Of a stretch of DNA of 32,000 nucleotides, positions 1,168 to 19,412 are shown piece by piece; the stretch's first letter is position 1, and every line of letters begins with the position of its first letter. Location: contig NC_016893.1 of the NCBI RefSeq assembly GCF_000247565.1, positions 540,001-572,000 of the forward strand. The letters are read 5' to 3'. The position numbers were made by a program, and so were the translations under genes. The DNA comes from Wigglesworthia glossinidia endosymbiont of Glossina morsitans morsitans (Yale colony). Its GTDB lineage: Bacteria > Pseudomonadota > Gammaproteobacteria > Enterobacterales > Enterobacteriaceae. A model generated the notes under the pieces. That model was given only the letters and a program-made list of their open reading frames with translations, did no database searches and was not told where the DNA came from.

Positions 1168-1794
1168 ATGTATAAATTAATATTAAAAACTATTTTTTTG
1201 ATATATATTTTAATTGGCAATAATTTTAAAAATTTTGCTTATTCAAGTGAATACAAAAAGCTAGATTTTTTTATTTCTAGTCAATATCAAATTATAGAAT
1301 TTTTTTCTTTTTATTGCACATACTGTTATCAGTTTGACGAAATATATCAAATTGACAAGCAAATAAAAAATAATTTTTTGAAAAAAAATAAATTTATAAA
1401 ATATCATGTAGATTTTCTTGGCTCAATGGGCAAGGAACTAACAATTGCATGGACAATAGCAAATTTTTTTAATATAGAGGAAAAAATTAGTCCCGAATTA
1501 TTTCAAATAGTGCAAAATGTCAATAAAAACATTACAAAAAAAGATATTTGGTTAATTTTTGAAAAATTTGGAATCAACAAAACGCAATATGAATCTGCAA
1601 AAAATAGTTTTGCGGTAAAATTTTTTTTAAGTCAACAATATAATATTGAAAAAAAATTAGATCTCAAAAGTGTTCCAAGTATTATAGTAAACAATCAATT
1701 TATTATAAATAACGACGAAATTCATGCTAGTTCTATAGAAAATTACACCGAAAGATATATTAACATAATTAGAAATTTATTATCTAATAATTAA
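1168..1794 (+). CDS. dsbA: Periplasmic thiol:disulfide oxidoreductase DsbA
   Basis: 208 aa, the same length as E. coli DsbA. It has a hydrophobic N-terminal signal-like segment, EFFSFYCTYCYQF aligning with EFFSFFCPHCYQFEE, KYHV, and the cis-Pro loop SVPSIIVNN aligning with GVPAMFVNG. Confidence 0.88.
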   Translation: MYKLILKTIFLIYILIGNNFKNFAYSSEYKKLDFFISSQYQIIEFFSFYCTYCYQFDEIYQIDKQIKNNFLKKNKFIKYHVDFLGSMGKELTIAWTIANFFNIEEKISPELFQIVQNVNKNITKKDIWLIFEKFGINKTQYESAKNSFAVKFFLSQQYNIEKKLDLKSVPSIIVNNQFIINNDEIHASSIENYTERYINIIRNLLSNN

Positions 1795-1849
1795 TATTAT
1801 CTAAAATAGAACTATCTTATATAAAAATTATATAAGTAAATTTTTAATT

Positions 1850-2671
1850 ATGAATTATATAAATGAAAAAATTATATTAATAGATGGTTCCATATATTTA
1901 TATCGTGCATATTATGGATTGCCTAATTTAAAAAATAAATTAGGACAACCAATAGGTGCTCTTTACGGAATGATTAGCATGATAAAAAAAATATTAAAAA
2001 AATATAATCCTTATTATATAGCTATAATATTTGATTCAGGAAAATGTAATTATAGAAGTCAAATATATGAATTATATAAAAAAAACAGAAACAAAATGCC
2101 AGATGATTTATATGTTCAAATACCCAGAATAAAAAAAATACTTAAAAAAATGGGATTATCTATTTTTTCCATTGAAGGTACAGAAGCTGATGATATTATT
2201 GGAACAATATCAAAATTATTAGAAAATCAAGGAAGAAAAACACTTATATTTACTAATGATAAAGATATGATGCAATTAGTATCAAATAATATAAACATAA
2301 TTCATGTCAGCTCTTATCAAAGATTTGATCCTTATGCCGTATATTTAAAATATAGAGTCTTTCCGCATGTAATTTCTGATTATCTTGCTTTGGTAGGAGA
2401 TGCATCAGATAATATTCCAGGAGCTCCTGGAATAGGAAAAAAAGCAGCCTCAATTTTATTATCTCAATTTTATTCTATTGAAGGCATTTACGAAAATATT
2501 AACAATATTAAAAATATGAATTTTTTTAATAAAAATAAAATAATTAAGTCTTTACAGAATAATAGATCTAAAATATTTAAGTATCATAAATTAACTAGAA
2601 TTAATACTGATATTAAAATAAGATTTTCTATTAAAGATATTAAATTAAAACATCAAAAATCTTATTATTAA
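1850..2671 (+). CDS. polA: Stand-alone 5'-3' exonuclease (FEN-like), homologous to the N-terminal 5'-nuclease domain of DNA polymerase I. No Klenow part is present.
   Basis: 273 aa. IILIDGSIYLYRAYY, GQPIGALYGM, NKMPDDLYVQI, GTEADDIIGT, NDKDMMQLVS and LVGDASDNIPGAPGIGKK align with E. coli PolA residues about 1-290. It lies next to dsbA, close to the E. coli dsbA-yihF-yihG-polA arrangement. An Xni/ExoIX ortholog cannot be fully excluded. Confidence 0.8.
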   Translation: MNYINEKIILIDGSIYLYRAYYGLPNLKNKLGQPIGALYGMISMIKKILKKYNPYYIAIIFDSGKCNYRSQIYELYKKNRNKMPDDLYVQIPRIKKILKKMGLSIFSIEGTEADDIIGTISKLLENQGRKTLIFTNDKDMMQLVSNNINIIHVSSYQRFDPYAVYLKYRVFPHVISDYLALVGDASDNIPGAPGIGKKAASILLSQFYSIEGIYENINNIKNMNFFNKNKIIKSLQNNRSKIFKYHKLTRINTDIKIRFSIKDIKLKHQKSYY

Positions 2672-2796
2672 TAATAATATTTTATATTTTAATTTTCATA
2701 ATTATTTTATAAAATGTGAATTTTTTATTTTTTAAAAAATAAAGTTTATTGATTTCATTAAAATAAGGTTAAAGATTATTTAAAATCAAAAAAACC

Positions 2797-3138
2797 TTAT
2801 TTAAGCGATTTCAAAGTTCCCTTTGGAAAAATATTAGTAATACAATCTTTTTTAATTATTATTAAATTGTTTTCGTACAATTCTAATAAAATATAATTTA
2901 TATCTATAATTTTTATTATTTTCCCAATAATTCCCGAAGAAGTAAGCACTTCGTCTCCTTTCGCTAAAGAAGTAATTAATTTTTTATGTACATTAGCTCT
3001 TTTTTGTTGAGGTCTTAAAATAATAAAATAAAAAACAATACCAAATATTAATAGCATTATTAATAGCGTATATGGGTTATTTTGTGTATTTGGAATTGGA
3101 TTTTTATCGAAATTTATGTTGTCAAAAAATACATTCAT
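2797..3138 (-). CDS. yajC: Preprotein translocase accessory subunit YajC
   Basis: 113 aa. LLIMLLIFGIVFYFIILRPQQKR...HKKLITSLAKGDEVLTSSGIIGKI matches E. coli YajC (MLVVFGLIFYFMILRPQQKR...SIAKGDEVLT). The C-terminal PKGTLKSL also matches. Confidence 0.92.
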   Translation of the reverse strand: MNVFFDNINFDKNPIPNTQNNPYTLLIMLLIFGIVFYFIILRPQQKRANVHKKLITSLAKGDEVLTSSGIIGKIIKIIDINYILLELYENNLIIIKKDCITNIFPKGTLKSLK

Positions 3139-3536: not shown

Positions 3537-5282
3537 ATGTCAAAAAAAAATTTTTCTACTTGGCGTATTTTTTGTCGTTTATGGTCTATCATTTCACCTT
3601 TTAAAGGAGGGTTAATTATTGCAACAATAGCTCTAATAATTAACGCTACAAGTGATACGCTTATGTTATCTTTACTTAAACCTTTATTAGATGATGGATT
3701 TAAAGGACTTAATAATATCATTCCTATTTGGATGCCTCTTACAATTATCGTTTTAATGTGTTCTCGAGGTAGTAGCGGATTTATATCGAATTATTGTTTA
3801 TCTTGGGTGTCTGGAAAAGTAGTTATGCGTATGCGAAAAAATCTATTTCAACATATTATGCAAATGCCTGTATCTTTTTTTGATCGAAAATCAACTGGTA
3901 CACTATTATCGCATATTACTTATGATACAGAACAAGTTGCATCATCATCTTCCAGTGTATTGATTACTGTTGTACGAGAAGGATCATTAATAATTGGATT
4001 ATTTTTTATGATATTTTATCATAGTTGGCAACTATCATCTATTTTAATCGTAATCACTCCTATAGTATTTTTTTTTATTAAATATATCTCTAAAAAATTT
4101 AGAAAAATTAACAAAAAAATTCAAAACAATATGGGCATGGTTACTAATAGTGCAGAACAAATGTTAAAAGGTCACAAAGAAATTCGTATTTTTGGTGGTC
4201 AAAAAAAAGAAAGCGAACGTTTTAATTATTTTAGTAATTTCATGAGACAACAAAGCATGAAAGTAGTAGTAGCATCTGCTGGATTAGACGTTATTATACA
4301 ATTTATTGCATCTTTAGCATTAGCAGGAATATTATATATCGCTAGTTTGCCTAAAGTTATAGAAAGTTTAACAGCAGGAACGATTACAGTAATTTTTTCT
4401 TCTATGATCGCGTTAATGCGTCCATTAAAATCGTTAACAAATGTAAACTCACATTTTCAAAAAGGCATGGTGGCATGTCAAACGTTGTTTTCTATATTAG
4501 ATATTCAAAAAGAACAAGATTACGGATCTCTACACATTAAAAGAGCACGAGGCGAAATTAAGTTTAAAAATGTTACATTTACTTATCCCGGGAAAACTCA
4601 GCCATCCTTAAAAAATATTAATATTAAAATTTCAGCAGGATACACTGTTGCTTTAATTGGATCTTCTGGTTCAGGAAAATCAACTTTAATAAATTTATTA
4701 ACTAGATTTTATGATGCGAATCAAGGCACTATTTTTCTTGATAATATCGATTTAAAAAAATATAAATTAGATAACTTAAGAAATCAGATGGCTTTAGTAT
4801 CACAAAATGTGTATTTATTTAACGATACTATAGCAAATAATATTGCATATGCAAAAAAAGATATTTATTCTAAAAAACAAATTGAAAAAGCTGCTTCTAT
4901 GGCATATGCAATGAATTTTATTATTAAAATGAAAAACGGATTAAATACAATTATAGGTGAAAATGGTACGTTATTATCTGGAGGACAACGTCAAAGAATT
5001 GCGATTGCAAGAGCTCTATTACGCGATTGTCCGATTTTAATTCTCGATGAAGCTACATCTGCTTTAGATATAGAATCTGAAATAGCTATACAAAAAGCAC
5101 TAAATAAACTGAAAAAAAATCGTACATCTCTAATTATAGCACATCGTATTTCTACTATAAAAAAATCTGATATAATATTATTAGTAGAAAACGGAAAAAT
5201 AATAGAACATGGCAATCATCATGAACTTATGGAACTCCAAGGGACATATGCTCATATGCACTATCTGCAATTGGGTAAATAA
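3537..5282 (+). CDS. msbA: Lipid A/LPS flippase, ABC transporter MsbA
   Basis: Collinear with E. coli MsbA over its full length (STWRIF.RLW, LLKPLLDDGF, SWVSGKVVMRMR, FFD..STGTLLS.ITYD.EQVASSSS). It has Walker A GSSGSGKST, signature LSGGQRQRIAIARALL and Walker B ILILDEATSALD. I prefer the ATG at 3537 (MSKKNFSTW) over the TTG at 3525 used by the ORF track. Confidence 0.95.
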   Translation: MSKKNFSTWRIFCRLWSIISPFKGGLIIATIALIINATSDTLMLSLLKPLLDDGFKGLNNIIPIWMPLTIIVLMCSRGSSGFISNYCLSWVSGKVVMRMRKNLFQHIMQMPVSFFDRKSTGTLLSHITYDTEQVASSSSSVLITVVREGSLIIGLFFMIFYHSWQLSSILIVITPIVFFFIKYISKKFRKINKKIQNNMGMVTNSAEQMLKGHKEIRIFGGQKKESERFNYFSNFMRQQSMKVVVASAGLDVIIQFIASLALAGILYIASLPKVIESLTAGTITVIFSSMIALMRPLKSLTNVNSHFQKGMVACQTLFSILDIQKEQDYGSLHIKRARGEIKFKNVTFTYPGKTQPSLKNINIKISAGYTVALIGSSGSGKSTLINLLTRFYDANQGTIFLDNIDLKKYKLDNLRNQMALVSQNVYLFNDTIANNIAYAKKDIYSKKQIEKAASMAYAMNFIIKMKNGLNTIIGENGTLLSGGQRQRIAIARALLRDCPILILDEATSALDIESEIAIQKALNKLKKNRTSLIIAHRISTIKKSDIILLVENGKIIEHGNHHELMELQGTYAHMHYLQLGK

Positions 5283-5531
5283 CAAAAAATATCGAATTAA
5301 AAGATTTTTTGTATCTTTTATCGAATATATTTGGTTTCAAAAAACTATATTCATATTTTTTTTATTTCCATTTTCAATGATATATTTATGTGTTACTAAA
5401 TTTATTCATATTTTATACAAAATTGGTTATAAAAAAATAAAAAAATTCGAAATTCCGATTATAGTTATAGGCAATATTACCGTTGGAGGCAATGGGAAAA
5501 CACCTTTAGTAATATGGTTATGTGAACAACT

Positions 5532-5542
5532 AAAAAAAAAAA
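5532..5542 (+). repeat. A11 homopolymer at the first lpxK frame change (frame 1 to frame 3)
   Basis: Counted directly: T at 5531, A at 5532-5542, T at 5543. One additional A gives L-K-K-K-N-W-Q-V-G-V-V-S-R-G-Y-G in a single frame. Confidence 0.95.
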
Positions 5543-5981
5543 TTGGCAAGTAGGCGTAGTTTCAAGAGGATATGGCAGAAAAAATAAAAAAATTTCTGTA
5601 ATTGTTGATAAAAATACGACGCATGAAGAATGCGGAGATGAGCCGGCAATAATATATAACAAACTTCATATACCTGTTGCAGTAAGTTCTAATCGAATAG
5701 AAGCAGTAAATATGTTATTGAAATTAAACAATCTAGACGTTATTATTTCTGATGATGGTTTGCAACATTATTCAATGGGTCGATCTATTGAATGGATAGC
5801 AGTAGATTATAAAAAAAAATTCGGAAATAATTTGCTTTTACCAGCAGGACCAATGCGAGAAACAAAAAATAAGTTATTTTCTGTAGAAAACGTAATTTTA
5901 AACGGATTTTGTATAAAATATAATAAAAATGTTCAAGCTAGATTTTATCATAAAAATTTTGCTATTAATTTAGTAACTAAT

Positions 5982-5992
5982 AAAAAAAAAAA
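5982..5992 (+). repeat. A11 homopolymer at the second lpxK frame change (frame 3 to frame 2)
   Basis: Counted directly: T at 5981, A at 5982-5992, T at 5993. One additional A gives N-K-K-K-K-L-S-H-L-F-P-L-V-A-I-A-G in a single frame. Confidence 0.95.
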
Positions 5993-6361
5993 TTATCACA
6001 CTTATTCCCACTTGTTGCTATAGCAGGAATTAGCAATCCAGGGAAATTTTTTAATATGCTACGAGATAGTAAAATATATCCTGTAAAAGAAATTAGTTTT
6101 TTAGATCATCAAAAATATCAGGAAAATATGCTTACTATCCTTACTTCAAAAGAAGAACAATTATTAATGACAGAAAAAGATGCAATAAAATGCAAAAAAT
6201 TTGCAAAAAATAATTGGTGGTATATACCTATATATGTTTGCATTAATAAAAAATTCAAAAAAGTTTTATTAAAACCAATAGAAAATAAAATAAAAAAATA
6301 TCGCAAAAAATTTAAAAAAATTTCTTATTAAATTTTAAATTGTTAATCTTAGGATTATTGT

Positions 6362-6526
6362 ATGGATCAAAAATTGTTAAATATTATTGCTTGTCCAATA
6401 TGTTATGGTAAATTAATTTTTTGTTCAGAAAAACAAGAACTGATTTGCAAATTAGATTTAGTAGCATTTCCTATTCATGAAGGTATTCCTATTTTAATAA
6501 AAAATGCAAGTTATTCAATAAAATAA
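6362..6526 (+). CDS. ycaR: Small zinc-ribbon protein YcaR (UPF0434/Trm112-like), 54 aa, not in the supplied ORF track
   Basis: My own translation is [55 protein letters not shown]. coli YcaR reads MDHRLLEIIACPVCNGKL...[24 protein letters not shown]. It sits between lpxK and kdsB, as in E. coli. Confidence 0.88.
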
Positions 6527-6542
6527 ATAATAAGGCAAAATA

Positions 6543-7277
6543 ATGAATTTTATTATTATTATACCTGCAAGATTGTTATCAACCCGATTTCCTAATAAAC
6601 CTTTAGTGAAAATCGGCGGAAAACCGATGATAATAAGAACAATAGAATCTGCAGAACAATCAGGAGCAAAACGTATAATTGTTGCAACTGATCATCAGAA
6701 AATTGCAGATATGGTAAAAAAAAGCGGTAAAGAAGTTTATATAACAAAGAAACAACATAATTCTGGAACAGAAAGATTGTTTGAAGTGATCGAAAATTTC
6801 AAATTTGAAGATAATCAAATTGTTGTTAACCTACAAGTAGACGAACCATTTATTCCAGGTTGTGTAATAAAAAAAGTTGTGAATATTTTAAATAATAAAA
6901 ACGTAGATGTTTCTACTTTAGCTATTCCAACAAATAAAAAAGTAGAAATTTTTAATCCAAATACCGTAAAAGTGATTACTGATGCTTCTGGAAATGCTTT
7001 GTATTTTTCTCGTTCTGTAATTCCATGGTGCAAAAATTATAAATCTTTTAAATCAGTTTTTTTGAGGCACATAGGTATTTATGCATATCATGCAAAGTTC
7101 ATTCGTCTATATGTTAAATTATTACCTGTAAAAATAGAAAAATTAGAAAATTTAGAGCAATTAAGAATTTTATGGTATAGAAAAAAAATATATGTTTTAA
7201 TTGAAAATGTTCGTGAATGTATTAGTATTAATACTCCAGAAGATCTGAAACACATCAATAAATTTTTTAAATTTTAA
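6543..7277 (+). CDS. kdsB: 3-deoxy-manno-octulosonate cytidylyltransferase (CMP-Kdo synthetase)
   Basis: 244 aa. IIIPARLLSTRFPNKPL, GKPMI, RIIVATDH, HNSGTERL, NLQVDEPFIP, ALYFSRSVIPW, LRHIGIYAY and LEQLRILWY are collinear with E. coli KdsB. Confidence 0.94.
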   Translation: MNFIIIIPARLLSTRFPNKPLVKIGGKPMIIRTIESAEQSGAKRIIVATDHQKIADMVKKSGKEVYITKKQHNSGTERLFEVIENFKFEDNQIVVNLQVDEPFIPGCVIKKVVNILNNKNVDVSTLAIPTNKKVEIFNPNTVKVITDASGNALYFSRSVIPWCKNYKSFKSVFLRHIGIYAYHAKFIRLYVKLLPVKIEKLENLEQLRILWYRKKIYVLIENVRECISINTPEDLKHINKFFKF

Positions 7278-7645: not shown

Positions 7646-8400
7646 TTTCTGAATACCTCTTTTTTTTGATAAAATTCAAATTGGAACTCGTGTAAAAGTT
7701 TTTTTTGTTTATATGTTAAATTTATATTATCTAGCAATTTTGGTTTTTTTATCCACGTTTGTCCTAATGCATGTTTTAATCTCCATTCTGCTATTTTTTT
7801 ATGATTTCCTGATAATAATACTGAAGGAACTTTCATGTTGTTAAACATTTTTGGATATGTATAATCTGGACAGCTTAAAATTCCATTAAAAAAAGAATCT
7901 GTTGTATAAGATTTTTTTTTTAGTACTCCTGGAATCATTCTTGAAATAGCATCAATTAAAATCATTGCAGCTAATTCTCCTCCACTTAAAATATAATCCC
8001 CTATGGAGATTTCTTCATCTACTTCAGAAAAAATTATACGTTCATCAATGCCTTTATATCTTCCGCATATTATAAGTAATTTTTTATTTTTCAATAATTG
8101 TACAATTTTAAATTGATTTAATAAATCTCCTTTTGGAGAAACGTATATAGTTTTTATTTGAGATCCCAATTCTTTTTTTGCTGTGAGGATTGTATTCTGT
8201 AATGGTTTAGGTTGCATTAACATTCCAGAACCTCCTCCATATATTTTATGATCAATTTTTCTTCTTTTATTTTCTGAATAATCTCTAGGATTCCAAAAAC
8301 TTAAATTTAAATAATTTTTTTTTAATATATTTTTAATAATTCCATGATTCATAAAATCATAAAACATACTAGGAAATATTGTAATTATACCAATTTGCAT
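7642..8400 (-). CDS. trmD: tRNA (guanine37-N1)-methyltransferase
   Basis: 252 aa. MQIGIITIFPSMF, RDYSENKRRKIDHKIYGGGSGMLM, ICGRYKGIDERI, ISIGDYILSGGELAAM..IDA..R..PGV and HKKIAEWR are present. Its stop overlaps the rplS start by 4 nt (ATGA). Confidence 0.95.
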   Translation of the reverse strand: MQIGIITIFPSMFYDFMNHGIIKNILKKNYLNLSFWNPRDYSENKRRKIDHKIYGGGSGMLMQPKPLQNTILTAKKELGSQIKTIYVSPKGDLLNQFKIVQLLKNKKLLIICGRYKGIDERIIFSEVDEEISIGDYILSGGELAAMILIDAISRMIPGVLKKKSYTTDSFFNGILSCPDYTYPKMFNNMKVPSVLLSGNHKKIAEWRLKHALGQTWIKKPKLLDNINLTYKQKKLLHEFQFEFYQKKEVFRK

Positions 8401-8404
8401 GATT

Positions 8405-8947
8405 TTACTTTTGTTTATTGTAAAAGTTTGAATTCCAATCTACTCTAATTATTTTAGAATTTTTATCAATTTTTTTTATAAAAACTTCATAAACAAATGG
8501 AATTAAATATTCTTTAAATCTTAAATGATTTTTTTTTTGAGATCGTATTACTAATATATCATGATGTGAAGATCGCAAAAAATTTACTACTTTTCCTAAA
8601 TTAAAATTTTTTGTATTAAGAACTTGTAATCCAATGATTTCGTGCAAATAATATTCGTTATTTTTTAATTTATTTAATTGCTTTTGAAATAGCATAACAT
8701 TGAGATTTGTTATCGAACTAGCTGCACATCTATTGTTAATTGCTTCTATTTTCGCAATAAACTTTTTATAATAAGTTTTCCAAGAAGTAACGTAACATTT
8801 TTGATATATGTTATTTATTTTAAATATCCAAGGTTGATATTTAAATATATTTTGAGATTTTTCTGTATATGAAATTACTTTTACCCATCCTTTTATTCCA
8901 AAAGGAGCTCCTATTTTCCCTATAGAAATTAAAATATCGTGTATCAT
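8405..8947 (-). CDS. rimM: 16S rRNA processing protein RimM
   Basis: 180 aa. IGKIGAPFGIKGWVKV.SYTE is the RimM N-terminal motif. Position between rpsP and trmD and length both match E. coli RimM (182 aa). Confidence 0.9.
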   Translation of the reverse strand: MIHDILISIGKIGAPFGIKGWVKVISYTEKSQNIFKYQPWIFKINNIYQKCYVTSWKTYYKKFIAKIEAINNRCAASSITNLNVMLFQKQLNKLKNNEYYLHEIIGLQVLNTKNFNLGKVVNFLRSSHHDILVIRSQKKNHLRFKEYLIPFVYEVFIKKIDKNSKIIRVDWNSNFYNKQK

Positions 8948-14183: not shown

Positions 14184-14933
14184 TTAAATTTTTTCCAAAG
14201 TGTAAGAGATAGTAGAATTAAAGTATTTTGAAAATTTAATTAACGATAGTTTATTTTTTATTTCCAATACATAACCTGCTTTATCCCACATTCCTAAAAC
14301 TATTCTATAATGATTTTTAGGTAAGCGATGAATTCTTGGAAGATGAGTATGTCCGTGAATCATAATGCTTGCATTTTTTTTTTGCATTAGATTTAATGCG
14401 TACGTATCGTTTACATCCATAATTTTACTTTTTTTATTTTTATTATTTATAATGCTTTTATTTCTAACAAAAGTACTAATTTTAATACGCCATGATAATG
14501 GCAAATTTAAAAAAAATTTTTTCAGCCAATTTTTATTAATAATTTTTCTAAATTTTTGATATTTTTGATCATATGTACAAAGCGTATCTCCATGCAAAAT
14601 TATAGTTGATTTTCCATTCAAATTTATTATTGTACCGTTTGGTAGAATAGAAATATTTGCTAATTTTGCGTATTTTTTTCCAATTAAAAAATCTCGATTA
14701 CCATGTATAAAATAACAAGAAGTACCTTTTATAACAAGATTTTTTAATACTTGTGAGATTTTTAGTGAAATATCATCAATATAGTCGTCTCCAATCCATA
14801 TATCAAATAAGTCACCTAAAATATATAAAGCATTTGCGCTGCTTGCTTGATATTTTAAAAAATTTAAAAATAAATTTATTATATTTGGATTGTTTTGATT
14901 TAAATGAACGTCTGAAATAAATAATATTTTCAT
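14184..14933 (-). CDS. lpxH: UDP-2,3-diacylglucosamine pyrophosphatase LpxH
   Basis: 249 aa. FISDVHL, ALYILGDLFD.WIGDD, CYFIHGNRDFL.GK, ILHGDTLCT.D..YQ.FR and MIHGHTH.P are the calcineurin-like metallophosphoesterase motifs of E. coli LpxH. It is adjacent to purE, as in E. coli. Confidence 0.92.
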   Translation of the reverse strand: MKILFISDVHLNQNNPNIINLFLNFLKYQASSANALYILGDLFDIWIGDDYIDDISLKISQVLKNLVIKGTSCYFIHGNRDFLIGKKYAKLANISILPNGTIINLNGKSTIILHGDTLCTYDQKYQKFRKIINKNWLKKFFLNLPLSWRIKISTFVRNKSIINNKNKKSKIMDVNDTYALNLMQKKNASIMIHGHTHLPRIHRLPKNHYRIVLGMWDKAGYVLEIKNKLSLIKFSKYFNSTISYTLEKI

Positions 14934-16485: not shown

Positions 16486-17352
16486 TTATTTTTTGAAATA
16501 ATTAAGATGTTTTAAATAAATTTGCACGGTGTTTTCTATTAACATAGCAACAGTCATTGGACCTATTCCTCCAGGAACAGGAGTGATATAAGATGCCACC
16601 TGCATAGCATCTCGATAATTTACATCTCCTACTATTTTTCCATTACTTAATCGATTAATACCGACATCTATTACGATAGCTCCAGGCTTAATCCAATTTC
16701 CAGGAATAAATTCAGCTTTTCCCACTGCAACAATTAATAGTTCTGCGTTTTTAATGTGTTTTTCAAGATCTATGGTAAAACGATGAGTTATAGTAACTGT
16801 GCAACCTAATAGTAACAATTCTAAACTCATTGGACGTCCTACAATATTAGAGGCACCTACTATAACTGCATGCAGTCCTATAAAATTTATTTGATAGTAT
16901 TGCAGTAGTTTAATAATCCCTTTTGGAGTACATGGACGTATATCTGGATACCTTTGGCATAATTTACCTATGTTGCATGGATGAAAACCATCTACATCCT
17001 TATAAGGAGATATTGTTTTTAATATATGAAAGCTATTTAATTTGCTTGGTAGTGGTAACTGTACTAAAATACCATCTATTAAATTATTACGATTTAATTT
17101 TTTAATTAATGTAATTAACTTTAATTCAGATATGTTTTCTGCAAAATGATAAAAATATGAAGTTAATCCTATTTTTTGACATATTTTTTTTTTATTAGAT
17201 ACATAAATTCTAGAAGCTGGATTATTTCCAACTAAAATCATAGCTAAAGATGCCGGACGCATGCCTTGTAGAAAAAAATATTTTAAATTTTTGTGTATTT
17301 TATGGATAATTTTATTAGCAACGAGACTTCCATTGATTATTTTTGCTATCAT
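16486..17352 (-). CDS. folD: Bifunctional methylenetetrahydrofolate dehydrogenase/methenyl-THF cyclohydrolase
   Basis: 288 aa, the E. coli length. It carries IINGSLVA, P.LA.ILVG.NPAS..YV..K.K, DGILVQLPLP, KDVDGFHP.N.G.L, PCTP.GI..LL, GAS.IVGRPM..ELL and ITPVPGG.GPMTVA.L..NT. Confidence 0.95.
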   Translation of the reverse strand: MIAKIINGSLVANKIIHKIHKNLKYFFLQGMRPASLAMILVGNNPASRIYVSNKKKICQKIGLTSYFYHFAENISELKLITLIKKLNRNNLIDGILVQLPLPSKLNSFHILKTISPYKDVDGFHPCNIGKLCQRYPDIRPCTPKGIIKLLQYYQINFIGLHAVIVGASNIVGRPMSLELLLLGCTVTITHRFTIDLEKHIKNAELLIVAVGKAEFIPGNWIKPGAIVIDVGINRLSNGKIVGDVNYRDAMQVASYITPVPGGIGPMTVAMLIENTVQIYLKHLNYFKK

Positions 17353-17736: not shown

Positions 17737-18486
17737 TTATTTAATACTCAACAAAGTTTGTAACAAATTTTGATTTTTTGAAGAACTAGATAAAATTATA
17801 TTTCTCCAACCTAAGTGGTAAGCAGTAGAATATATTCTATGGCTTACAACCACTAATTTACACTGAATAATAAATAATGTTCGATAATGTATTGGAATAA
17901 GACCGTGAATTCTTATTAATATTGTGCAACTAGTTACTACTAATGTATTAATTTGAAAATATTTTATTATTTTTAATATCTGATTTTGCTCATATTGAAT
18001 AAAATTACGATAGTAACATTCGCAACTTATTATATTTGCTTTATAAAGTTTTAAACAAACTTTTAATTTTTTTCTTCCATTATTTCCTTTTAAAATCAAT
18101 ACATTTTTTTTTTTCAAATTAAATTGAGATAATAATTCTATTAAATTTTCACTAGTATTGCCATATTTTGAATAATTTGCTTTGATCCCACTTATTTTAG
18201 TGAAATATTGCGCACTTGTATGACCGATGGCATAATAACGCACGTATTTTGGCCAATTTAATTTTTCCAAAATTATTTGTGAATTTGCATAATAAACAGC
18301 ACGAGGAGAAACTATACATATCAGATCTTTATAAAATAAAGATGCTAATAATTTTTGTAGAATAATTAAATCTTTTCCTGGAGTAAAATATATTAGTGGT
18401 AAGTACCATGCTTTTTCCCCATAAGCTCTTAGCATTTTAACAAGATATTTGCCGTCCGGATATGGTCGTGTAATTAAAATGTTCAT
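17737..18486 (-). CDS. hemD: Uroporphyrinogen-III synthase
   Basis: 249 aa. MNILITRPYPDG..LV..LR..G..AW..PLI.F.PG aligns with E. coli HemD MSILVTRPSPAGEELVSRLRTLGQVAWHFPLIEFSPG. VVTS and LVVVS.R are present. It sits directly downstream of hemC. Confidence 0.88.
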   Translation of the reverse strand: MNILITRPYPDGKYLVKMLRAYGEKAWYLPLIYFTPGKDLIILQKLLASLFYKDLICIVSPRAVYYANSQIILEKLNWPKYVRYYAIGHTSAQYFTKISGIKANYSKYGNTSENLIELLSQFNLKKKNVLILKGNNGRKKLKVCLKLYKANIISCECYYRNFIQYEQNQILKIIKYFQINTLVVTSCTILIRIHGLIPIHYRTLFIIQCKLVVVSHRIYSTAYHLGWRNIILSSSSKNQNLLQTLLSIK

Positions 18487-18488
18487 AT

Positions 18489-19412
18489 TTATAAAGATTT
18501 TATTATTTTTTTAGCACCTTGATTAATTAATTTTTGTACTTGTTTATAACTAAGTTGTTTTGCTTCTGAAATATCAGATTGTCCTTCGCTGCGAATAATT
18601 GTAGATCCATTAACAGAACCTACTATAGTTTTTATCCATATTTGGCTTTTTTGTTTAATTTTTGCATATACTCCTATTGGTATACGGCATCCAATGGCTA
18701 ATTTAGAAATAATTGTTTTTTCTGAATTAACGCATATTGCTGTTTCTTTATCATGTATTAAATTTACAAGATCTAATATTTTATGATCATTTAATCTATA
18801 TTGTACCATAATTGCGCCCTGTCCCATGGCGGGAATCATGTTGGTAAGATTTAGAGGAGTATATAATTTTTTATTAATTTGCAATCTTTTTAAGGCAGCT
18901 ACAGCAAGTATAATTGCATGAAAGTGACCCTGGAATAATTTATTTATTCTACTATGTATGTTACCTCTTAATGGATATACAATAAGATCTGGACGTAAAA
19001 GTAACAATTGAAATTTACGTCTTATGCTAGATGTTCCAATAATAGCTTTTCTTGGCAAAGAATAAATATTCTTATAATACTTACTAACTATTGCATCTCT
19101 TGGATCGCCTCGTTTGCAAATTGCTGCTATTCCTAATTTATTTGAAAGAGGTGAAGTGAAATCTTTCATCGAATGAACTGCAATGTCAGATTGATATTCT
19201 AATAAAGATTTTTCTAATTCATTAATAAATGAACTTTTGTTTTGTATTTGGTTTTGTGTATTTTTTTTAAAAATGTCACCTGATGTTAATAAAGGTAATA
19301 AACTTATGTTTAAATATGGATGGTAGTATAATAATTTTTTTTTTACATGATTTGCTTGCCAAATTGCAAGTGGACTAGTTCGGGTTGCTATTATCAAGCA
19401 GCTATTTTTCAT
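18489..19412 (-). CDS. hemC: Porphobilinogen deaminase (hydroxymethylbilane synthase)
   Basis: 307 aa. IATR.SPLA.WQA..VK.KL, DIAVHSMKD, DPRDA.VS, IGTSS.RR..QL...RPDL....LRGN...R..KL, AIILAVA.LKRL, PA.GQGA and GC..PIG (the cofactor Cys) are present. Confidence 0.93.
   Translation of the reverse strand: MKNSCLIIATRTSPLAIWQANHVKKKLLYYHPYLNISLLPLLTSGDIFKKNTQNQIQNKSSFINELEKSLLEYQSDIAVHSMKDFTSPLSNKLGIAAICKRGDPRDAIVSKYYKNIYSLPRKAIIGTSSIRRKFQLLLLRPDLIVYPLRGNIHSRINKLFQGHFHAIILAVAALKRLQINKKLYTPLNLTNMIPAMGQGAIMVQYRLNDHKILDLVNLIHDKETAICVNSEKTIISKLAIGCRIPIGVYAKIKQKSQIWIKTIVGSVNGSTIIRSEGQSDISEAKQLSYKQVQKLINQGAKKIIKSL

Follow-up and report, generated by a model that had tools for sequence, protein, structure and literature searches.

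The window analysed here is a stretch of 32,000 nucleotides from the 719,535-bp chromosome of the Wigglesworthia glossinidia symbiont of Glossina morsitans (WGM). The locus under study is lpxK, the gene for the lipid A enzyme LpxK, whose reading is broken at two poly(A) tracts. As in Enterobacteria, lpxK stands directly behind msbA, and the order msbA, lpxK, ycaR, kdsB is retained in four relatives. The features are as follows, in window coordinates.

3537..5282, + strand: msbA (lipid A flippase), intact, NF008381 at 998.5 bits; directly 5' of lpxK and overlapping it
5248..6331, + strand: lpxK (tetraacyldisaccharide 4'-kinase), in three reading frames; matches TIGR00682 after tract repair, and 4EHX
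5248..5531, + strand: lpxK segment A, with the N-terminal membrane helix and the P-loop GGNGKTP
5532..5542, + strand: poly(A) tract 1 (site 1), A11, out of frame; A12 or A9 would give ..EQLKKKNWQVG..
5551..5553, + strand: TAG stop met with tract 1 as A11; product ends ..LKKKIGK
5543..5981, + strand: lpxK segment B, with VVSRGYG, DEP, DDGLQHY and LPAGPMRE
5982..5992, + strand: poly(A) tract 2 (site 2), A11, out of frame; A12 or A9 would give ..NKKKKLSHLFP..
6021..6023, + strand: TAG stop met with tract 2 as A11; product ends ..NKKKNYHTYSHLLL
5993..6331, + strand: lpxK segment C, with AGISNP, MTEKDAIKC and NWWY; stop codon TAA at 6329-6331
6362-6526, + strand: ycaR, intact, YcaR at 78.7 bits, under its cutoff of 126; downstream of lpxK
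6543-7277, + strand: kdsB, intact, above its curated cutoff; downstream of lpxK and co-oriented
14184..14933, - strand: lpxH, intact, above its curated cutoff

By reading lpxK from its ATG, which gives a 35-nt overlap with the end of msbA (other in-frame ATGs lie at 5209 and 5221), three successive frames are obtained: frame 2 from MLICT to EQLKKK, frame 1 from NWQVGVVSRGYG to NLVTNKKK, and frame 0 from (K)LSHLFP to KKISY at the final stop. An earlier, sequence-only reading had placed both frame switches inside uninterrupted A11 runs, and the coordinates, the tract lengths and the position of the switches proved exact when the window was read again. The two tracts are the sole + strand A-runs of at least 10 nt in the window, and the gene has no other frame-breaking indel. 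Elsewhere in the window, lpxH has an in-frame sense-strand A10 at 14374-14383, trmD has an in-frame A10 at 7912-7921, and hemD has an in-frame A11 tract at 18104-18114. With tract 2 as A11, the truncated product ends in ..NYHTYSHLLL, and the exact 110-aa product of the A11 form of tract 1 is called in Logan assemblies. The first in-frame start codon of segment B is the ATG at 5712, and the protein that NCBI derives from lpxK (WP_050812776.1) comprises only the last 91 aa of segment C (6056-6331).

The addition of one A to each tract yields a single ORF of 361 aa, and the removal of two from each yields one of 359 aa, neither with a further stop, as had been proposed for A12 or A9 at both tracts. 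The junction peptides of the frame-restored protein would be ..CEQLKKKNWQVGVVSR.. and ..NLVTNKKKKLSHLFPLVAIAGISNPGK... The assignment to the LpxK family (TIGR00682 / PF02606) is based on two matches. The repaired ORF fits NCBIfam TIGR00682 with an E value of 5.5e-86 and 288.6 bits (cutoff 91.95) over one uninterrupted stretch, profile positions 1-322 of 324, and it aligns with Aquifex aeolicus LpxK (4EHX) in one stretch over both junctions; an alignment with E. coli LpxK is illustrative only. The family motifs (Walker A GxxGKT as GGNGKTP, GDEP, and DDGLQHY) each stand in the correct frame, and all five of the motifs quoted earlier (GGNGKTP, VVSRGYG, DDGLQHY, LPAGPMRE and MTEKDAIKC) are found in the repaired ORF. 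These matches confirm 5248-6331 as lpxK, a predicted member of the LpxK family. The rest of the lipid A/Kdo pathway in the window, which had likewise been called intact, is so: msbA, kdsB and lpxH score above their cutoffs, and ycaR is complete at its lower score.

Long homopolymers are prone to sequencing error, and lpxK would simply be intact if both WGM tracts were truly A12. In favor of this, the WGM reference is a Sanger assembly of MDA-amplified, PCR-templated reads at 9.4x (Rio et al. 2012), and one Logan contig (L002, SRR22299860), which begins at tract 1, reads A12 at tract 2. On the other hand, contig L008 has A11 at both tracts; L009 has A11 at tract 1 and ends inside tract 2; and L012 has A16 at tract 1 and A11 at tract 2, so that at WGM site 2 one contig reads A12 and two read A11. 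The A11 readings come from other runs, and a synonymous SNP that is absent from the reference (5466 T>A) is carried by Logan contigs from three such runs. In addition, a sister lineage has site 1 equally out of frame on a DNA contig of 417 kb, and four lineages are frameshifted at site 2, among them the G. palpalis gambiensis symbiont, whose assembly retained contigs at >1,400x coverage. Finally, ~15 billion proteins were searched for exact copies of 20 conceivable LpxK products, built from three starts with A9-A15 at site 1 and A9-A13 at site 2: no full-length or singly repaired WGM LpxK was present in that collection, and only the A11 products were found, plus one A16 variant clustered with the A11 product. 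The frameshifts of WGM lpxK are thus present in genomic DNA, one discordant A12 contig aside. A sequencing or assembly error is highly improbable, and the under-calling of A12 as A11, which had been named as the trivial alternative, is largely refuted by the independent contigs and by the high-coverage DNA assemblies of sister lineages.

The A12, A16 and tract-ending contigs all come from the runs SRR22299859-71, whose library could be RNA or DNA; a guess from dates makes them probably part of SRP408059, a set of bacteriome RNA-seq with poly(A) selection. The runs SRR5590063-68 are tentatively assigned to PRJNA387614 from dates, organism and laboratory. Contigs L005-L007, which start 92-141 nt upstream of msbA, look as if they might be transcript-derived. 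The A12, A16 and tract-ending contigs hint at length heterogeneity at the nucleic-acid level, and the A12 contig could equally reflect DNA polymorphism or read error.

The comparison of tract lengths with relatives, also proposed in the sequence-only reading, puts site 2 out of frame in four of five lineages and site 1 in two of five. The only intact lpxK among the five is that of the Wigglesworthia of G. brevipalpis (WGB), in which both tracts are interrupted. In the sister lineage of WGM (L011, 93% nucleotide identity), site 1 is A11 and site 2 is A10, and both are out of frame. Site 2 is likewise A10 and out of frame in L003 and in L004-L007 (four runs), and it is A10 in the Illumina genome of the G. 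palpalis gambiensis symbiont, which is among the three lineages frameshifted at this site besides WGM. The distance between conserved anchors around site 2 is 13, 13 and 10 nt (mod 3 = 1) in these three, 14 nt in WGM and 15 nt in WGB. Site 1 is in frame in L003 (A9-T-AA), L004 (A9-C) and WGB (A8-G-A). The earlier claim that the same +1 change repairs both tracts therefore stands for WGM and fails for the three relatives with A10 at site 2, which need -1 or +2 there. A second homology search for further lineages with the C-terminal segment gave only three already-known clusters.

These tract states indicate that the site-2 frameshift is old and common to WGM and three other lineages, and that the site-1 frameshift arose later, on the branch ancestral to WGM and its sister lineage, since the other frameshifted relatives carry only the site-2 break. 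Tract length could change recurrently, and the shared out-of-frame state might reflect homoplasy and not ancestry; the argument for selection in the frameshifted state would then be weaker.

The selection measures point to a gene that is not decaying. Between WGM and L011, dN/dS is 0.148 for lpxK (0.17, 0.12 and 0.16 in the three segments) and 0.171 for kdsB, by the NG86 method, which is crude at 25% GC and for which dS is near-saturated in deeper pairs. The codons downstream give dN/dS of 0.10-0.25, similar to kdsB, and past site 1 the differences number 30 synonymous and 20 nonsynonymous (binomial P = 4e-10 for the test of neutrality). In each of four lineages the 258 downstream codons are free of stops, compared with 22-36 stops in the other frames, and in neutral simulation a stop-free outcome had P <= 0.0034 for segment C and occurred in 0 of 5,000 runs for segments B and C together. 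These comparisons indicate that lpxK is kept under purifying selection across several symbiont lineages despite its frameshifts. A recent true pseudogene, in which LpxK production has ceased and the gene looks conserved only because inactivation was recent, would agree with the 11 WGM pseudogenes and the ongoing gene loss described by Rio et al. (2012), and relaxed selection would permit two inactivating lesions in one gene. It is nevertheless very unlikely: the site-2 frameshift is common to lineages separated by dS ~0.7, the downstream constraint is that of kdsB, the other pathway genes of the window are intact, and four lineages have acquired neither stops nor extra indels where neutral simulation predicts stops almost always. 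The earlier view that this is not a decaying pseudogene is thus upheld, with lesions confined to poly(A) and shared with relatives.

Based on the results presented above, we consider it probable that these are real frameshifts in a needed lpxK, tolerated and rescued by slippage on poly(A), most likely by RNA polymerase, with ribosome sliding as a possible contributor. Each of the two genomic frameshifts is a length change in a lysine-coding poly(A) tract, and because such tracts are slippery, a fraction of the expression products would regain the frame. The likeliest route would be the addition or loss of A's by RNA polymerase on A10-A11, and sliding of the ribosome along the AAA run may contribute. 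In this way lpxK would still be needed and some full-length LpxK would still be made in WGM; both the product and the rescue route at the RNA level are inferred. Since both WGM tracts need correction, the expected yield of full-length enzyme is low, and a putative dosage throttle on lpxK is a reasonable consequence of the double break. In poly(A)-frameshifted genes of Buchnera and Blochmannia, 12-50% of transcripts are described as corrected, and slippage at runs of at least 9 A's as adding up to 6 nt (PMC5009743; PMC3017870). With that per-site range and independent correction of the two tracts, about 1-25% of WGM lpxK transcripts would be expected to be doubly corrected. On the other hand, Baranov et al. 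(2005) found A/T runs of W. glossinidia (WGB) to be equally frequent in coding and non-coding DNA and read these frequencies to mean that slippage does not occur in this organism, which counts against slippage rescue of lpxK.

Functional LpxK could also be reached by other routes. Replication slippage might keep a minority of the genome copies in frame (A12 or A9); these would supply LpxK while the consensus stays out of frame, and would be spread across the symbiont population or, if the symbiont is polyploid, within cells. The discordant contigs at WGM site 2, the breaking of contigs at both tracts, which is expected with mixed read lengths, and the variation of tract length by lineage (A10, A11, A12) are all compatible with this route, which we regard as unlikely; the exact A11 of WGM site 1 recurs in a lineage at dS ~0.2, an argument that this tract is stable, RNA may be the source of the heterogeneous contigs, and the correction in Buchnera and Blochmannia has been ascribed to transcription (PMC3017870; PMC5009743). 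Also unlikely, in our judgment, is a mainly translational rescue, in which the ribosome slips or slides on A-rich lysine codons of an unchanged mRNA (-1 in WGM; +1 or -2 in the A10 lineages). The heptamer A AAA AAA, present in lpxK, is well known as slippery, and bidirectional sliding would account for the tolerance of both +1 and -1 lesions. Against it, the A12 and A16 contigs represent variation at the nucleic-acid level, and both usual stimulators are missing at the tracts. The 70 nt past the tracts fold no better than shuffles (z of -0.5 and -1.6 in WGM, +1.1 and +0.3 in L011), and the fold is not conserved in L011; direct reading of the sequence found no Shine-Dalgarno-like GGAGG 5' of either tract. 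A programmed -1 frameshift site of the dnaX type was considered separately and rejected, its heptamer being trivially present and its stimulators missing.

A split gene, in which three pieces are separately translated by re-initiation and assemble into an active kinase, is scarcely credible. ATG-started ORFs of 101-114, 103 and 91 aa do exist, and the 91-aa piece is the one annotated as a protein by NCBI. In WGM, however, there is no in-frame start over the 57 codons past site 1 or the 21 codons past site 2, and the model is rejected because these start-less stretches, which hold VVSRGYG, DEP and AGISNP, are constrained (pN/pS 0.14-0.42). The restart positions also vary between lineages.

Rescue by poly(A) slippage has precedents as a class (Tamas et al. 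2008 PNAS, and the 'ancient frameshifts' of Wernegreen et al. 2010 MBE, as given in PMC3017870 and PMC5009743; Williams & Wernegreen 2010 for B. vafer). Like the genes in Buchnera and Blochmannia, lpxK belongs to an AT-rich obligate insect endosymbiont, is a cell-envelope gene, carries a frameshift in a sense-strand poly(A) of 10-11, is otherwise intact, and has its frameshift in common between species without faster evolution. Both shifts fall in A11, beyond the ~9-nt minimum for homopolymers of this class, and the codons downstream are under purifying selection in lineages that share the frameshift. Unlike these cases, Wigglesworthia is another symbiont genus, and the correction at one site varies by lineage (+1 vs -1); single indels figure in the Blochmannia comparisons, whereas two frameshifted tracts lie within WGM lpxK. 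For WGM itself, Rio et al. (2012; mBio 3:e00240-11) reported that 6 of 11 pseudogenes had frameshifts of only 1 or 2 indels and might be rescued at homopolymeric tracts, so the rescue idea for WGM pseudogenes is not new; the main text of that report does not name lpxK or give a cross-lineage or selection analysis of it.

Two other known systems are similar in part. In E. coli dnaX (A AAA AAG), as in lpxK, an A-run is decoded by tRNA-Lys, and the outcome of a -1 shift in lpxK would be identical to the A12 product; sliding of ribosomes on poly(A) shares the slippery A-run at tRNA-Lys codons. In contrast to dnaX, lpxK has neither an upstream SD-like element nor a conserved downstream hairpin, and its lesion, judged against the intact WGB ortholog, is a mutation and not an ancestral two-product design. 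The phase-variable LOS genes of Haemophilus and Neisseria are likewise surface-glycolipid genes whose frame is set by homopolymer length, and the lpxK tract differs among samples (A11 vs A12). On the other hand, lpxK serves an essential core step of lipid A and not a decoration, and it resides in a clonal, vertically inherited symbiont whose lineages have the out-of-frame state as their fixed consensus. Among the contigs, site 2 varies by a single A12 against two A11, and site 1 is steadily A11 over dS ~0.2. Because WGM lpxK is broken and yet kept under purifying selection, it is placed in the slippage-rescued class, of which it is probably a new example, neither a dead gene nor a sequencing error.

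A further interpretation, which we consider improbable, is that the out-of-frame tracts are a selected, slippage-based expression device, with very low or tunable LpxK favoring an intracellular mutualist. Site 2 would then have been kept out of frame throughout the morsitans-palpalis radiation of tsetse symbionts and a second tract added in the morsitans branch, and the exact A11 at site 1 over dS ~0.2 would be the result of stabilising selection on tract length. LpxK output determines how far lipid A is 4'-phosphorylated, and through this the properties of the envelope and possibly host immune sensing.

Under the preferred reading, tolerated frameshifts with rescue by slippage, the 'impaired and rescued' phenomenon of poly(A) tracts, described in Buchnera and Blochmannia, would extend to a third symbiont, the medically relevant obligate mutualist of the tsetse vector, and would affect an essential step of lipid A synthesis. 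The series of lineages at one site (in frame, A10 needing -1, A11 needing +1, and A12 in one WGM contig) provides a natural experiment on the persistence of such frameshifts and on the corrections that can be tolerated. The lpxK of WGM, of the G. palpalis gambiensis symbiont and of two other lineages should be annotated as a probably functional frameshifted gene, and read neither as a pseudogene nor as the 91-aa RefSeq fragment. Since lpxK is probably functional, metabolic reconstructions of these symbionts should not score lipid A synthesis as broken.

The lpxK gene of the Glossina morsitans symbiont (WGM), which encodes an essential step of lipid A synthesis, lies in three successive reading frames:

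lpxK, 5248-6331, + strand: three successive reading-frame segments, jointly one LpxK
site 1, 5532-5542, + strand: A11 tract between segment A (5248-5531) and segment B (5543-5981)
site 2, 5982-5992, + strand: A11 tract between segments B and C (5993-6331)

The frame changes coincide exactly with these two unbroken A11 runs; nowhere else in the 32-kb window does the + strand have an A-run of at least 10. The sequence-only reading had placed and measured both tracts exactly. Without repair, the frame from ATG 5248 ends at TAG 5551-5553 and the middle frame at TAG 6021-6023. Adding one A per tract gives a single ORF of 361 aa (359 aa if two are removed from each), and the proposed fusion into one LpxK is borne out by NCBIfam TIGR00682 (lpxK, equivalog), which the repaired ORF matches at 288.6 bits (cutoff 91.95) in a single stretch covering profile positions 1-322 of 324. 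The repaired ORF also aligns in one stretch, spanning both junctions, with the solved Aquifex aeolicus LpxK (4EHX), and every LpxK motif named in that reading is present. The neighbouring msbA, kdsB and lpxH, likewise described as intact, exceed their curated cutoffs; the same description of ycaR stands less firmly, its match to the YcaR model scoring under the cutoff. The G+C content per 2-kb block is 21.5-32%, mostly 22-28%.

Eight sense-strand poly(A) runs of at least 10 occur in the window, all within genes and none in spacers, and no sense-strand poly(T) run of that length is found there. The only two out of frame both belong to lpxK. The other six (7912-7921, 8529-8538, 14374-14383, 17184-17193, 18104-18114 and 19335-19344) are in frame in the intact genes trmD, rimM, lpxH, folD and hemC (A10 each) and hemD (A11), and serve as natural controls for measuring slippage. 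Homopolymers of at least 8 number 59 for sense poly(A), 11 for sense poly(T) and 11 in spacers; the sense poly(A) excess presumably reflects lysine AAA-codon usage at the 25% G+C of the WGM chromosome (Rio et al. 2012).

Selection on the three in-frame lpxK segments was estimated from codon alignments by the Nei-Gojobori method, comparing WGM with the related lineage L011.

Nei-Gojobori estimates, WGM vs L011
lpxK overall: dN/dS 0.148, dS 0.21
lpxK segment A: dN/dS 0.17, dS 0.16
lpxK segment B: dN/dS 0.12, dS 0.20
lpxK segment C: dN/dS 0.16, dS 0.28
kdsB (intact neighbour): dN/dS 0.171, dS 0.28
msbA: dN/dS 0.034, dS 0.17

In segment C, 3' of the shared site-2 frameshift, deeper lineage pairs give dN/dS values of 0.10-0.25. 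Of the WGM-L011 differences in the 258 codons past site 1, 30 are synonymous and 20 nonsynonymous, where neutrality predicts about 1:4 (binomial P = 4e-10), and none of the four frameshifted lineages carries a stop in these codons, compared with 22-36 in the other two frames. When neutral AT-biased substitution was simulated at the observed dS, 0.34% of runs left segment C without a stop at dS 0.21, and no run did so at higher dS; segments B and C together remained free of stops in 0/5,000. With a dN/dS close to that of kdsB, no downstream stops and a neutral simulation that contradicts decay, the earlier view that lpxK is not a decaying pseudogene is upheld. A split gene whose pieces are translated by re-initiation was also considered; in WGM, however, 57 codons past site 1 and 21 past site 2 contain no in-frame start codon and are therefore not translatable in that way, yet they are constrained (pN/pS 0.14-0.42) and contain VVSRGYG, GDEP and AGISNP, which speaks against such a model. 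Unless all the frameshifts are very recent and independent, selection has preserved coding capacity past them, and some full-length LpxK is probably made.

The simplest objection is that both A11 tracts are under-called A12. The WGM genome comes from Sanger reads of MDA-amplified DNA at 9.4x (Rio et al. 2012), and public Logan contigs from five runs (among them SRR22299859, -60, -62 and -71) also carry WGM sequence.

Tract lengths in Logan contigs of WGM
L008: site 1 A11; site 2 A11
L009: site 1 A11; site 2, contig terminates within tract
L012: site 1 A16; site 2 A11
L002: site 1, contig starts at tract; site 2 A12

The A12 of L002 favours an under-call at site 2. L008, L009 and L012, however, which come from different runs, each retain A11 at one or both sites, and their common synonymous SNP in lpxK (5466 T>A, a Val codon changed from GTT to GTA), missing from the reference, shows that they do not derive from the reference assembly and that the sampled fly colony was slightly unlike the sequenced one. 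A search of about 15 billion predicted proteins recovered the exact A11 products (pieces of 110, 103 and 91 aa) but no product with one or both sites repaired. At both sites, therefore, most of the data reproducibly give A11, while the A12, A16 and tract-ending contigs show that more than one tract length is present in those read sets. The A16 (L012 686-701, run SRR22299871) lies in a contig otherwise identical to the window except for the shared SNP, with its gene called as a 123-aa product.

Both tracts were compared across five lineages.

Site 1 and site 2 by lineage (nucleotide identity to the window)
WGM: site 1 A11, out of frame; site 2 AAT+A11, out of frame (+1/-2)
L011 (93%): site 1 A11, same context, out of frame; site 2 GCT+A10, out of frame (-1/+2)
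L004-L007, four runs (86%): site 1 in frame (TTA AAA AAA AAC); site 2 AAT+A10, out of frame
L003/MAG-1 (80%): site 1 in frame (A9-T-AA); site 2 A10, out of frame
WGB, the G. brevipalpis symbiont, BA000021 (72%): interrupted tract AAAAAAAGA, in frame at both sites

L011 is DNA-derived, since it lies on a 417-kb contig, and MAG-1, the G. palpalis gambiensis symbiont, comes from Illumina 2x150 contigs kept only at mean coverage >1,400x. The LpxK of WGB is intact (363 aa). Between conserved anchors at site 2, WGB has 15 nt, three lineages 13, 13 and 10 (all mod 3 = 1) and WGM 14. The comparison with related strains places site 2 out of frame in 4/5 lineages and site 1 in 2/5, and the proposal of the same +1 at both tracts holds for WGM alone: in the three relatives frameshifted at site 2, the A10 there needs -1/+2. 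In the simplest history read from these sequences, substitutions would have created a long pure A-run after the WGB line split off, the site-2 frameshift would predate the divergence of morsitans-group and palpalis-group symbionts, and WGM would later have gained one further A there; the site-1 frameshift would be the younger one, dating from the ancestor shared by WGM and L011. Alternatively, the out-of-frame states may stem from recurrent slippage (homoplasy) and not from common descent. In L003, the msbA ORF (1290-3062) is extended to 590 aa, ending ..LGQEKKDFFKRI, its stop being shifted within the msbA/lpxK overlap; msbA has 581 aa in WGM (3537-5282), L011 and WGB.

In Buchnera and Blochmannia, such poly(A) tracts make RNA polymerase slip, correction reaches 12-50% of transcripts, and some frameshifts are shared between species without gene decay; bacterial slippage on at least nine A's adds up to 6 nt (PMC3017870, PMC5009743). 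On the lpxK tracts, slippage would yield longer and shorter RNAs, part of them regaining frame, so that at site 2 it could rescue the A11 state, which requires +1, as well as the A10 state, which requires -1. If the SRR222998xx runs are RNA-seq, the A12 contig and the A16 one (A11+5) agree with RNA slippage; a +5 change is odd for a DNA read error and, should SRR22299871 be RNA-seq, fits multi-nucleotide transcript slippage. These runs plausibly belong to SRP408059, a deposit from about late 2022 of poly(A)-selected mRNA libraries from the bacteriomes of G. morsitans and G. brevipalpis, in which oligo-dT capture would also favour lengthened tracts. L005-L007, of the SRR55900xx lineage, have 92-141 nt of sequence ahead of the msbA start (L005 1-92, L006 1-141, L007 1-118) and extend through lpxK into ycaR/kdsB, which looks like a putative msbA-lpxK-ycaR-kdsB transcript with its 5' end in the yajC-msbA spacer.

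Against slippage stands the study of Baranov et al. 2005, which saw no depletion of A/T runs in the coding regions of WGB and concluded that the species does not undergo slippage; the same result could also reflect weak selection in a bottlenecked symbiont. Ribosomal slippage may contribute, A AAA AAA being slippery, but downstream structure at the tracts is neither significant nor conserved and no SD-like element lies upstream of them. LpxK could also come from a minority of in-frame genome copies, a route compatible with the others. Since two sites must be corrected in WGM, little of the output is expected to be full-length; the low output behind the suggested dosage throttle would follow from the two lesions and does not itself show that a throttle is adaptive.

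Based on these sequence comparisons, lpxK probably belongs to a class already described in endosymbionts, of genes that are frameshifted at poly(A) tracts but kept functional via slippage: the lesion lies within a tract of an otherwise intact gene, the frameshift is present in DNA and conserved across lineages, and purifying selection acts downstream. The tract-located frameshift, intact remainder and lack of decay are shared with the Buchnera and Blochmannia cases, whereas the organism, the gene and the two tracts in one gene are new, as is a lineage series with differing out-of-frame lengths at one site. Rescue at homopolymeric tracts in WGM is already known as a general suggestion: Rio et al. 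2012, citing Wernegreen 2010, proposed that 6 of its 11 pseudogenes, with just 1-2 indels, might be so rescued. Their main text does not mention lpxK by name, and a literature search for Wigglesworthia and lpxK found no paper on the subject. Table 1 of a 2024 genome announcement (PMC10868223) gives WGM 22.5% G+C and 8 pseudogenes and WGB 11 pseudogenes, the reverse of Rio et al. 2012 (WGM 25%, 11; WGB 22.5%, 8), and its columns appear swapped. Of this lpxK, RefSeq includes as a protein only the C-terminal 91 aa: WP_050812776.1, 'tetraacyldisaccharide 4'-kinase [Wigglesworthia glossinidia]', has exactly the sequence encoded by 6056-6331, and this stand-alone entry is a misleading annotation. 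The lpxK case bears on annotation and on pathway calls.
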